44,073 bases of DNA from an uncultured Candidatus Saccharibacteria bacterium. Lineage in GTDB: Bacteria; Patescibacteriota; Minisyncoccia; Phycocordibacterales; G965230995. Each line of letters starts with the position of its first letter. The stretch's first letter is position 1. Positions 5,913 through 32,919 of this stretch are shown one piece after another. The position numbers and the translations under genes are program-made. A model generated the notes under the pieces. It searched no databases and had not been told where the DNA came from. It was given only the letters and a program-made list of their open reading frames with translations. The stretch lies in the NCBI GenBank assembly GCA_965230995.1, contig OZ246398.1, positions 1 to 44,073 on the forward strand. The letters run 5' to 3'.

Positions 5913-6254
5913 CTATCCTCCTTGTTCACTTCGTTCACAGCAGAAGAGATTCGGTCACAACTCTTCTGCTTCGATAAATCTACGCAACGAAGGTCGCGAC
6001 CCCGTCTCATGGGCAAGCCTCGCAAGCTCGCTTGTATACCGGCTCCGACTTTCGAATCTCCCATCCTCTCGCAATGGTAAATTGCTCAAACACTTCGTGT
6101 TTTTGCAAACCATTGCAATAGAGATTCGATCCTTACAGGATCACAGTACCCCGATTGGATAATTACTTCGTCCTAAACGGACTCGTAATTATACACAATC
6201 GGGCTTCGAATCTCCCACGAAAGCCTCCCAGGCTTTCTATCCTCCTTGTTCACT
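5913..6254. repeat. Hairpin-rich tRNA-adjacent element flanked by an 18-bp direct repeat
   Basis: CTATCCTCCTTGTTCACT at 5913-5930 and 6237-6254; inverted copies of the tRNA-Ser 3' arm at 6051-6068 and 6205-6217; several nested stem-loops. Confidence 0.8.
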
Positions 6255-30011: not shown

Positions 30012-30779
30012 TTAAAACAAAACAAAAAAGAAAATCAGAGCAATGAGAATTCTATAAATACCGAAGGCAATAAAACTTCTTTTTTGAATAAATTTCAGCA
30101 GAAATTTTATTGAAAACATCGCAACAAAGAAAGAAACAACAAAACCAGCTGCAAGAACAGAGAACTGTGATATCTCGAATTCTTTGTAGCTCTGGAGCAG
30201 ATCAAAACCGCTAGCAGCAATCATTGTTGGTACAGCCAAAAGAAAAGAAAATTCAACAATGGTTTTTCTCTTTAACCCAAGAAACAACCCACCGACAATC
30301 GTCGATGCCGAACGAGAGACACCAGGCACAACTGCGAGAGCCTGAAATAGTCCAATCAAGATCGCGTTTTTATAAGAAGGCATACCACCATCTTCATCTT
30401 CTTTGTCTTTTTTGAAATGATATTTTTCAAAAATAATCAAAAACAAACCGCCGATTGCGAGTGCCCAAATGACAACAGAAGGATTTCCGATCAAATATCC
30501 TTTTATAAAATCATACAAAACAAAGCCAATAATGGCAGTTGGTATAAAAGCTGACGAGACTTTTTTAATAGTCTCAATTTTGAAAATAGTTTTCCAATAC
30601 AAAAATATTACCGAAGAAATTGCACCGAGTTGAATTATTATCTCAAAGCTTTTTGTAAAAACAGTCTGCTCTATTTTTAAGAGCTCGCTTACAAGTATTA
30701 AATGCCCAGTCGAAGAAATGGGCAAAAATTCTGTTATTCCCTCTACGATACCCAAAACAATACTATGCCAAATTTCCAT
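30012..30779 (-). CDS. uppP: Undecaprenyl-diphosphate phosphatase
   Basis: LGIVEGITEFLPISSTGHL, IQLGAI, PGVSRS. Confidence 0.97.
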   Translation of the reverse strand: MEIWHSIVLGIVEGITEFLPISSTGHLILVSELLKIEQTVFTKSFEIIIQLGAISSVIFLYWKTIFKIETIKKVSSAFIPTAIIGFVLYDFIKGYLIGNPSVVIWALAIGGLFLIIFEKYHFKKDKEDEDGGMPSYKNAILIGLFQALAVVPGVSRSASTIVGGLFLGLKRKTIVEFSFLLAVPTMIAASGFDLLQSYKEFEISQFSVLAAGFVVSFFVAMFSIKFLLKFIQKRSFIAFGIYRILIALIFFFVLF

Positions 30780-30810
30780 CACTACATAATAACGCAATTA
30801 ATGTCCCAAG

Positions 30811-30858
30811 TAAAAAGCGAGGCGGGGCCACGAGCACGAATGCTCGCAAACCCCGCCT
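30811..30858 (-). terminator. GC-rich nested hairpin terminator of the GC-rich ORFan
   Basis: AGGCGGGG/CCCCGCCT outer stem, CGAGCA/TGCTCG inner stem, followed by a T-run on the minus strand. Confidence 0.7.
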
Positions 30859-30876
30859 AATCTCAGACCTCTTCCT

Positions 30877-31473
30877 TTACTTGACTTTGAGCTTCACACC
30901 ATGGAACACCCAGAGGCAGAGAACAGCGACAAGACCCGCCTGATCGAATCTGAACGACTCGAAAACCGAAACACCCCAGGCGTAGATACTCCTCCGCTGA
31001 GACAGGAAGTTGTCCGCCTTGGCGATGTCTCTCAAGCAACGACTGCCGTCCTCGGTACGAAGGAATTCCTTGTACCGATACAAGACTTCAAGGTAGTGCT
31101 TCATCCAGATCTTCCGCTTCTTGATACGACCGTACTCGAAGAGGCGAAAAGCCTCTGAACGAGACAGACCGTTCTCCGTGTAGGTGGCGAGCTCAGACTG
31201 GCGGAACTGACCGAACGTCATCCGTCTGTAGTCCCCGGTGTGGTCCCTGCGACCATCGCGGGTAGCAAAGACGCGAATCTGACACGATTTGGTATTGCCC
31301 TTGCGAGTGAGGTGATGATGGTTCAGGGTCACAACAGTGAACCCGGAGCGAACGCTCACATCAACAGTATGCCAATCCTTGGCATTTCCTCGTCTGTTGA
31401 TGGTACCAATCGGTCTTCTTGCCCAATCGGGGCAATTCCTGGGAAGACGTACAGCACCAGATGGCATGTGCAT
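30877..31473 (-). CDS. GC-rich hypothetical protein (ORFan)
   Basis: 198-aa ORF with high GC at third codon positions; 33/60 GC on line 30901 versus 18/60 on line 31921. Confidence 0.65.
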   Translation of the reverse strand: MHMPSGAVRLPRNCPDWARRPIGTINRRGNAKDWHTVDVSVRSGFTVVTLNHHHLTRKGNTKSCQIRVFATRDGRRDHTGDYRRMTFGQFRQSELATYTENGLSRSEAFRLFEYGRIKKRKIWMKHYLEVLYRYKEFLRTEDGSRCLRDIAKADNFLSQRRSIYAWGVSVFESFRFDQAGLVAVLCLWVFHGVKLKVK

Positions 31474-31562
31474 CTCTTACCACGCGTTTTGGAAGTTACT
31501 TGATAGAACATTCAGAAACCCAATAAAAGACTACTAATATTTACCAAATAATCAATAGCGGG

Positions 31563-32189
31563 CTATTTTTGTATAAAATTAATTGCTTTATCTTTAATAA
31601 AAATTGCTTGATTATCACAGAGATAAAATAACGCTGTTTTATATTTTGCAACATCATCAATTACTTTTTTGTTACCCTCAGAAAAATCAGCATTGTCCGC
31701 GTGTGGCATAATTAAAAAATCCAGCAAACCTAGACCAGAAAAATCATTAATATTTTTAATTATCTCAATTTCCTCAGGATCATTTTTATCTACCGACAAG
31801 TCACCAGAGACAATCATAGAACCAGCACTTGTGCCTGTATAAATTATTTCGTCTTTTTTTATTGCATCAACCAGCGAATCTTTTAGTCCTTTCTTTTTGA
31901 TTAGATCAATTAAATAGAAAACACTACCACCACAAAAATGTATAATGTCTGATTGCTTTAAAAGTTTTTCAAAATCTCCAGCTGATAGCAATCGCAAATC
32001 TGCTGTAATAACCTCTGCACCAAGTCTTTCATATGCTTCTCTATCAACTCTTATCCACCATTTATCTTCAACATCATCTACATCTGAAGCATTTTCTATA
32101 AAAATAACTTTTTTACCAATCACATCTCCAACACAATCTACCAGCTTCTCTGCTGTTTGATTAAAAGCAGAAGCAAGAAATAATTTCAT
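31563..32189 (-). CDS. Peptidase E (S51) / class I glutamine amidotransferase-like protein
   Basis: DIIHFCGGSVFYL, YTGTSAGS nucleophile elbow, GLGL...MPH. Confidence 0.88.
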   Translation of the reverse strand: MKLFLASAFNQTAEKLVDCVGDVIGKKVIFIENASDVDDVEDKWWIRVDREAYERLGAEVITADLRLLSAGDFEKLLKQSDIIHFCGGSVFYLIDLIKKKGLKDSLVDAIKKDEIIYTGTSAGSMIVSGDLSVDKNDPEEIEIIKNINDFSGLGLLDFLIMPHADNADFSEGNKKVIDDVAKYKTALFYLCDNQAIFIKDKAINFIQK

Positions 32190-32213
32190 ATCTATATAAT
32201 GACCTAAATATAT

Positions 32214-32418
32214 AAAAAAACAACCACCTAGCAGAGCTAAGGTGGCATACGGCGGACAAAGAGCGAGGGGAAAGGAACAAGAGTGAAGGGTTTAAAGTCT
32301 GGTGATTGCATATGCAATCTTGCGAGTATCACAACCAGACTGGGAGGGACTTTCGTCCTTTAACCCATTAAACCGTCTACACTCGGCATTTGGCTCTTCA
32401 ATTGAATGAATCGCCTCT
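32214..32418 (-). ncRNA. Structured non-coding RNA, candidate 6S RNA
   Basis: Own promoter, no credible ORF, long-range pairing with an asymmetric bubble and branched apex, ends in a hairpin plus U-run. Confidence 0.55.
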
Positions 32419-32424
32419 GTGTAT

Positions 32425-32452
32425 ATAATACCAGATGTAAAATATTTGTCAA
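32425..32452 (-). promoter_or_regulatory. Sigma70 promoter of the ncRNA
   Basis: TTGACA (32452-32447), 16-nt spacer, TGG-TATTAT (32430-32425). Confidence 0.75.
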
Positions 32453-32466
32453 ACGTTTTTTGCAAA

Positions 32467-32505
32467 GAAAAAGGGCGGGAAAGCGAAGCTTTCCCGCCCT
32501 TTTTC
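32467..32505. terminator. Terminator after the cupin gene
   Basis: GAAAAAGGGCGGGAAAGC-gaa-GCTTTCCCGCCCTTTTTC. Confidence 0.9.
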
Positions 32506-32520
32506 ATATTCAATTTTATT

Positions 32521-32919
32521 CTACAAATCACTAGTTACCCCATCAAAAGTTTCGTCGTCTTTTTCTGCTTCTGCTTTTGTCTGGTGCATTACACCGTCTC
32601 TGTGATTAGGAGGAGCATAAACAGTATACAATTTCAGATGGACATTTTCTGATGTGTTCATAATATTATGTTTCGCTCCGGCAGGAACAACCACTGCAAA
32701 GCCATCTGAAAGCTGATGCTCTACCCCGTTGATAATAGATTTTCCACTACCAGCCTCGCATCTTATGAACTGATCGAGCTCGTGTGTTTCTTCACCGATT
32801 TCTTCACCAGGTTTTAAACACATAATGACAAGCTGACAATTCTTTGCTGTGTACAAAACACGACGAAAATATTCGTTTGTTAATGTTTCTCTCTCTAGAT
32901 TTAAACTGTATCCTTTCAT
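32521..32919 (-). CDS. Cupin domain protein
   Basis: GEEIGEETHELDQFIRCEAG...VVVPAGAKHNI...LKLYTVYAPPNH. Confidence 0.92.
   Translation of the reverse strand: MKGYSLNLERETLTNEYFRRVLYTAKNCQLVIMCLKPGEEIGEETHELDQFIRCEAGSGKSIINGVEHQLSDGFAVVVPAGAKHNIMNTSENVHLKLYTVYAPPNHRDGVMHQTKAEAEKDDETFDGVTSDL

Follow-up and report, generated by a model that had tools for sequence, protein, structure and literature searches.

The E. coli 6S RNA gene is followed by an ORF on the same strand (ssrS-ygfA), and some bacteria have two such RNAs, 6S-1 and 6S-2. A structured RNA followed by a terminator and then by a same-strand gene is also the classic layout of a regulated leader. We analyzed a Saccharibacteria locus for which a stand-alone structured RNA of about 200 nt had been predicted and described as 6S-like, possibly a divergent CPR 6S RNA. 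The window, meaning the whole stretch of DNA analyzed, is 44,073 nucleotides long. The genome it comes from is a complete single contig of 743 kb (742,714 bp), of the Paceibacteria-type CPR, and is the sole member of its own family among species representatives. We found no paper in the literature that links 6S RNA with CPR or Patescibacteria. The unit that encodes the candidate RNA is built as follows:

32521-32919, minus strand: cupin gene, upstream of the RNA unit
32467-32505, minus strand: cupin terminator, GGGCGGGAAAGC-UUCG-GCUUUCCCGCCC plus a U-run, with a 12-bp GC-rich stem and a UUCG loop (sequence and hairpin alignment)
32425-32452, minus strand: sigma-70-type promoter, -35 TTGACA at 32452-32447 and -10 TATTAT at 32430-32425 (sequence)
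32214-32246, minus strand: intrinsic terminator of the candidate RNA, GCCACCUUAGC-UCU-GCUAGGUGGU, with its hairpin at 32246-32223

These sequence features predict a discrete short transcript that has its own promoter and its own intrinsic terminator. The 16-nt promoter spacer ends in TGg (TG at 32433-32432), which makes an extended -10, and consensus scoring gave 11/12 with the TG present. Sites scoring at least 11/12 number 42 in the 743-kb genome, 30 of them intergenic, and the promoter of the candidate RNA is among them. The TTGACA-16-TATTAT promoter given in the original prediction was thus confirmed in the sequence and is near-consensus. Transcription is predicted to begin at about 32418 and to run to about 32215 on the minus strand, giving an RNA of ∼204 nt. 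The terminator tail, UGUUUUUUU (32222-32214), reads UGU7 and ends at 32214, so that the hairpin and T7 said to close the unit are indeed found there. The cupin terminator is likewise present upstream at 32467-32505 and, to judge from its sequence, the RNA unit is insulated by it from upstream transcription. With U/A runs on both sides, this terminator could act bidirectionally. A plus-strand promoter-like site scoring 10/12 (TTGAAT-16-TATAAT, 32402-32429) stands back-to-back with the RNA promoter and faces the bidirectional cupin terminator; it would yield a transcript of ∼70 nt and may simply be AT-rich noise.

We folded the candidate RNA as a single sequence, and its structure is therefore a thermodynamic prediction. 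The minimum free energy (MFE) fold has the following parts:

32256-32420, minus strand: structured RNA body (MFE fold, stability tests and composition)
32420-32411 with 32266-32256, minus strand: closing stem P1, weak (MFE fold)
32410-32397, minus strand: small side hairpin (MFE fold)
32396-32385, minus strand: 5' side of the internal loop, GAGCCAAAUGCC (MFE fold)
32279-32267, minus strand: CU-rich 3' side of the internal loop, UUGUUCCUUUCCCC (MFE fold)
32384-32280, minus strand: very stable Y-shaped core domain, comprising P2, a forked stem that carries two hairpins, and a GNRA hairpin, GGAC-GAAA-GUCC (MFE fold)

The pairings drawn originally all exist in the sequence, and most of them recur in the MFE fold, which contains GAGUG/CACUC, GGUUUAA/UUAAACC, GGAC-GAAA-GUCC, AGUCUGGU/ACCAGACU, UUGUGA/UCGCAA and GAUUGC/GCAAUC. 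The closing stem differs, however: the MFE fold favors ACAGAG-GCGA/UCGC-CUUUGU over GGCG/CGCC plus AAGAG/CUCUU. The bubble closed by a stem that had been proposed is also only partly borne out. The MFE fold does contain a large internal loop (12 x 14 nt), but the ∼10-bp closing stem contributes only ∼1.6 kcal/mol and is the weakest part of the structure.

Stability was scored against dinucleotide shuffles. The full RNA had a z-score of -4.1 (0/200 shuffles were as stable), the core without the terminator -3.8 (1/1000 shuffles), and the inner 105-nt Y-shaped domain -5.9 (0/1000 shuffles); the opposite strand reached only -2.8. Among intergenic windows of its own structure-rich genome, the folding energy of the candidate RNA is unremarkable. 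In the predicted fold, it is thus the three-way-junction domain that is robust, rather than a rod bearing a bubble.

We compared the candidate RNA with known RNA families. At the Rfam gathering threshold, a scan of the window returned tRNA alone. At E<=10 on 30700-32700, no family fell on the candidate RNA, the matches in the region being terminator look-alikes on the cupin hairpin; the cmscan against 6S/SsrS and riboswitches suggested with the original prediction was thus negative at this level. The 6S model RF00013, which matched 7 of 14 named genomes in control runs, had no match at E<=10 on the candidate RNA or anywhere in the whole genome. Two defining traits of 6S were rejected for this RNA. 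It does not have the rod shape: its ∼10-bp closing stem is near-neutral in energy and its apex branches into three hairpins at a three-way junction. Nor is it a conserved housekeeping RNA, with 0 homologs in 400 + 40 order genomes.

Other identities were also rejected. RNase P RNA (134391-134708, 99.3 bits) and tmRNA (85538-85921) are both encoded elsewhere in the same genome. A T-box was dismissed on the lack of an Rfam match on the candidate RNA and of the T-box motif in its sequence. The SRP RNA models RF00169 and RF01854 had no match in the genome. Ffh and FtsY were absent from the complete genome by HMM, motif search and tblastn: the best PF00448 score was 17.3 bits, and tblastn with an approximate E. 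coli Ffh query gave E>0.2. There is therefore no SRP partner for the candidate RNA to serve, and a divergent SRP RNA was rejected as well. As an observation in its own right, this complete genome shows no detectable SRP pathway.

The search for 6S among relatives led to a different RNA. RF00013 gave only eight sub-threshold matches in 201 order genomes; of the best of these weak matches, two adjoin ndk and a third, from another genome, follows ndk closely. We gathered ndk neighborhoods from 30 relatives and read 28 loci. Near ndk we found a conserved unit composed of a TATAAT promoter, AGGG... AGGGAG ... CACCCACCUAG-loop-CUAGG ... ACCCU, and then a terminator. The AGGGAG-to-CACCCAC motif pair was present downstream of ndk in 15/28 loci, including that of the genome under study:

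96156-96752: ndk, with the 6S-like RNA about 430 nt downstream
95536-95723, minus strand: ndk-linked 6S-like RNA, its 151-nt core lying between a TGTATAAT promoter and a terminator (z = -6.6)

An alignment of 13 sequences of the ndk-linked RNA displayed compensatory changes (one pair, for instance, reads UA:6/CG:5/GC:2), and we built a covariance model, R2, from it. R2 matched 251/301 order genomes (E<=0.001), almost always once per genome, and coincided with 7/8 of the weak RF00013 matches. Ten listed genomes carried two matches, and in two of them the second lay just downstream of the first. In the genome under study, the sole R2 match lies on the minus strand at 95566-95716 (87.8 bits, E = 6e-17), and the window has none at E<=0.1. 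Across 30 aligned members, 92.9% of cells were paired and 19/24 pairs showed double changes. The covariation score was 0.607, versus 0.228 in shuffles (0/500 reached the observed value) and 0.08-0.12 in slid controls, on an alignment that is model-fitted and hence somewhat favorable. Judging from these sequences, the 6S role in the host lineage is taken by the conserved ndk-linked RNA. Because this conserved 6S-like RNA sits elsewhere in the same genome, the candidate RNA is not the cell's 6S RNA. The 6S assignment of the original prediction, whether as 6S-like or as a divergent CPR 6S, is thus not supported: it also fails on the missing RF00013 match, the branched apex, the marginal P1 and the want of homologs.

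We searched for relatives of the candidate RNA itself. BLAST against 60 relatives found none. R1, a single-sequence covariance model of the RNA, detected no homolog in 400 order genomes with strict filters or in the 40 nearest genomes with lax filters. The collection of homologs that had been proposed for a covariation test thus came up empty across 440 order genomes. One scan of metagenome contigs with a degenerate junction/GNRA pattern retrieved one chance hairpin, on an apparently unrelated contig; the same pattern found no relative in viral contigs, and neither did blastn of the RNA against phages and plasmids. No second copy was found in the genome itself. The organism's DNA also occurs in assemblies of SRR14271366 and SRR14271374, and contigs from other assemblies of the same strain are 100% identical. 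As far as these sequence comparisons go, the RNA is a lineage-specific orphan.

The candidate RNA is followed closely by two genes on its own strand:

31563-32189, minus strand: peptidase S51 (dipeptidase E-like) gene (family match)
30877-31473, minus strand: ORF198, a 198-aa ORFan of 53.6% GC, 90 nt downstream of the S51 gene
30818-30858, minus strand: strong terminator hairpin closing the S51-ORF198 unit (sequence and hairpin alignment)

The S51 ATG (32189) lies 24 nt past the T-run of the candidate RNA, which ends at 32214, and the gene has no Shine-Dalgarno sequence. Downstream of the RNA promoter, neither S51 nor ORF198 is preceded by a promoter scoring at least 9/12. The best S51 promoter candidate, judged by eye, is a 7/12 site (TTGTTT-16-CATTAT) that overlaps the T-run and would give a leaderless mRNA. 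The layout thus suggests that S51 probably depends on read-through or on this weak 7/12 promoter, and ORF198 probably belongs to the S51 transcription unit. ORF198 matched no Pfam or PHROG family and had no homolog among 5.8 billion proteins. The 30818-31520 segment of the window forms a 53.6%-GC island that looks like another foreign orphan gene islet, and the GC-rich ORFs of ∼200 aa in this genome showed no paralogy among themselves.

The RNA was absent upstream of the four closest placed S51 orthologs (72, 65, 62 and 49% identity), where R1 was also negative. The orthologs are preceded by another ORF 7-14 nt away or by AT-rich spacers of ∼110-116 nt. The closest cupin ortholog (90% identity) is uninformative on synteny, its contigs stopping 21 nt past the stop codon.

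A regulated leader would be expected to offer its terminator a competitor, and here folding of 5' prefixes and duplex scans revealed no competing structure. The best alternative for the 5' arm of the terminator was a discontinuous pairing of -7.2 kcal/mol, and the sole other alternative was a 5-bp CAGAG/CUCUG contact that joins the terminator loop to the 5' end of the RNA. Either option falls short of the terminator fold by ∼11 kcal/mol, and the junction domain does not overlap the terminator. On present evidence from folding, we assume constitutive termination. The strong promoter, the stable fold and a terminator without a competing antiterminator fit the stand-alone unit for a structured non-coding RNA that was originally proposed. 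A leader or attenuator of S51 had been held less likely at the outset; that ranking was too low for an arrangement that places a terminator 24 nt before a co-oriented gene without a convincing promoter.

The composition of the locus switches at the borders of the unit, the GC-richer stretch between promoter and terminator being about 170 nt long. The RNA unit has ∼47% GC in a 31-36% background, with 46.6% in the RNA body, 31% in the S51 gene and 25% in the promoter region, and it lies in a non-syntenic gap that extends from the cupin gene to the S51 gene. A survey of the genome uncovered many orphan GC-deviant units, each running from a strong promoter to a terminator of its own; most of them encode orphan proteins, with a few non-coding ones among them. 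Other promoters scoring at least 11/12 precede long stable structured leaders at 626029-625760(-), 226271-226520(+), 494870-495300(+), 424552-424200(-), 662617-662900(+) and 116447-116200(-). The leader at 626 kb folds with -88 kcal/mol over 237 nt and that at 226 kb is a long near-perfect hairpin; several of these leaders precede GC-rich ORFs, and none resembles the candidate RNA. The genome also carries a LOOT RNA (about 423166-423286, 76.5 bits) and a group I intron (about 660991-661283, 65.2 bits), both above the Rfam threshold, together with a type III hammerhead (about 129678-129730, 43.1 versus a threshold of 48.5) and a Phe_leader-like element (about 627370-627495, 53.3 versus a threshold of 55), both just below it.

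The terminator of the candidate RNA bears a likeness to a tRNA. Its 5' arm, GCCACCTTAGCTC (32234-32246), is identical to nt 1-13 of tRNA-Thr(CGU) (44398-44410), and its 3' arm is a near-antisense of the same 13 nt. The chance of a 13-nt match to any tRNA gene is ∼0.02, a rough, post hoc estimate. The most stable intergenic folds of this genome are tRNA trailers, which lie downstream of most tRNA genes (for example at 6062-6241, 222557-222916 and 439494-439673), have the block CGAAGCCCGATTGAGC...GAGTCCGTTTAGGACGAAG...CCAATCGGGGTACTGA...TCGA in common and contain copies of tRNA 3' ends. Comparison of the candidate RNA with this tRNA-trailing element family found only a shared 8-mer, AGGACGAA. 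The tRNA-Thr(CGU) copy could echo the tRNA-copying elements of the genome, and a tRNA-linked function could go with it.

We also looked for targets in trans. RNAduplex runs with four accessible segments of the RNA against 712 start regions gave best energies of -16.7 to -24.9 kcal/mol, no better than those of shuffled segments.

Taken together, these results lead us to favor, with moderate confidence, the reading that the candidate RNA is an orphan, lineage-specific small-RNA module that doubles as a constitutive attenuator, and is not 6S. We regard the module as lineage-specific because composition switches in GC at its start, its terminator is private, it has no relatives and it occupies a non-syntenic gap. 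We regard the unit as a constitutive attenuator as well because its terminator lies 24 nt before the S51 ATG and S51-ORF198 has no good promoter of its own. In the proposed mechanism, the extended -10 promoter would drive a ∼204-nt transcript with a stable Y-shaped three-way-junction core that ends at a constitutive terminator. Most transcripts would stop there as free small RNA, and the fraction that reads through would supply S51 and ORF198. We infer expression and accumulation of the RNA, incomplete termination, and action of the free RNA in trans. Given the junction and GNRA architecture of the predicted fold and the lack of predicted targets, the free RNA would more probably work with a protein partner than by base pairing.

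Several other explanations share part of this evidence. The S51-ORF198 operon might be controlled by the RNA in cis, as a riboswitch or as a protein- or tRNA-dependent attenuator, the junction domain binding a ligand or factor and thereby governing formation of the terminator, 9 nt downstream of P1. This is possible, and rather unlikely in our estimate. It would account for a co-oriented gene whose ATG is 24 nt past the T-run with no promoter of at least 9/12 in between, for the multi-stem junction with its GNRA loop, and for a P1 that is as marginal (about -1.6 kcal/mol) as in many ligand-stabilized aptamers. However, the aptamer-like domain shares no sequence with the terminator, the search for antiterminator or anti-antiterminator pairings was negative, and no Rfam cis-regulatory family matches. 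Four S51 orthologs, the closest at 72% identity, do without such a leader (upstream gaps of 7-116 nt). Riboswitch classes are normally found repeatedly, but neither this genome nor any of 440 relatives contains a second copy. The opposite extreme, that the unit is functionless inserted DNA, foreign or decayed, with a chance promoter-like site and a terminator-like hairpin that only insulate or attenuate S51, seems improbable to us. Chance is unlikely to have flanked functionless sequence with a correctly spaced 11/12 promoter bearing a TG and with a canonical terminator right behind it, and the inner domain is far more stable than its shuffles (z = -5.9), with a strand bias. Such an insert would nevertheless look like this one in being an orphan in every search, in having a deviant composition like the other one-off GC-rich inserts of the genome, and in folding with an energy that is unexceptional among the intergenic windows. 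The RNA might instead be the first member of a new regulatory class, either an antiterminator-free sensing attenuator of S51 and its ORFan neighbor or a small RNA captured from a foreign source and acting in trans; we would put little trust in this idea. If true, it would mean a junction domain that senses a ligand or factor, or a foreign RNA at work in a bacterium with very few regulators.

Two explanations can be given far less weight. A second, highly divergent 6S RNA or analog would mimic an open promoter and sequester sigma-70 RNA polymerase through the 12 x 14-nt loop. Size (∼200 nt), a strong promoter of the housekeeping type and a large internal loop with a pyrimidine-rich 3' strand are what one would expect of it. 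Some relatives carry two copies of the ndk-linked RNA, which gives the order a precedent for two such RNAs in one cell. RF00013, however, has no match at E<=10 on the RNA or the genome, and R2, which scores 87.8 bits at 95566-95716, misses the window at E<=0.1. The RNA also has a closing stem of ∼10 bp that is nearly energy-neutral, a three-way junction at its apex and an extra terminator hairpin behind its 3' part, and unlike a housekeeping 6S it is conserved in no relative. All of this makes the reading very improbable. Translation of a small peptide that modulates termination is harder still to credit. A 24-codon frame (MQSPDFKPFTLVPFPSLFVRRMPP*) and a 9-codon frame starting at an AUG in the internal loop both exist, and the longer one ends in Pro-Pro-stop with its UAG in the 5' arm of the terminator. 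Its start codon is buried in a hairpin, however, no homolog is found, and CU-rich sequence trivially gives Pro, Phe, Ser and Leu codons; the 71-aa ORF proposed by the gene caller overlaps the cupin terminator and the promoter and belongs to no family.

The reading we favor, an orphan small-RNA module with a constitutive attenuator, corrects the annotation of the locus: the RNA is not to be called 6S. If it is expressed, it would be a rare case of a lineage-specific small RNA or attenuator in a 743-kb genome. The unit adds another lineage-specific, self-contained RNA module to a CPR genome in which orphan GC-deviant inserts and structured intergenic RNAs are unusually abundant. The by-product of the analysis may outweigh the result at the locus itself. 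A covarying 6S-like family, usually located by ndk, is present in ∼83% of the sampled order genomes and is missed at the Rfam threshold, and R2 can serve as a concrete model when 6S is annotated in these bacteria.

Compared with the described systems, the candidate RNA resembles 6S RNA (RF00013) in its size of ∼200 nt, its strong promoter, the helices on both sides of a large internal loop and a same-strand ORF downstream; it differs in lacking a covariance-model match, in its short near-neutral closing stem and branched apex, in the intrinsic terminator appended to it and in not being conserved. With the ndk-linked RNA it shares a genome, a small size (130-200 nt for both) and a TATAAT promoter followed by an intrinsic terminator, but the AGGGAG...CACCCACCUAG...CUAGG core and the strong covariation of the R2 family set that RNA apart, the candidate RNA being without these motifs. 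Attenuating leaders (riboswitch, T-box or protein-dependent) have the same order of promoter, multi-stem domain with a weak P1, short linker, terminator and gene within 24 nt; unlike them, the candidate RNA has no antiterminator and no Rfam leader match, is missing upstream of orthologs and occurs as a single instance. Most orphan GC-rich promoter-to-terminator modules, which are phage-moron-like, encode an orphan protein with a Shine-Dalgarno sequence, whereas this unit of ∼240 bp is without a convincing ORF. It is nonetheless like these modules in its strong promoter, in the deviant GC that sets in at its predicted start and ends behind its private terminator, in its lack of relatives and in its position in a variable gap between native genes.
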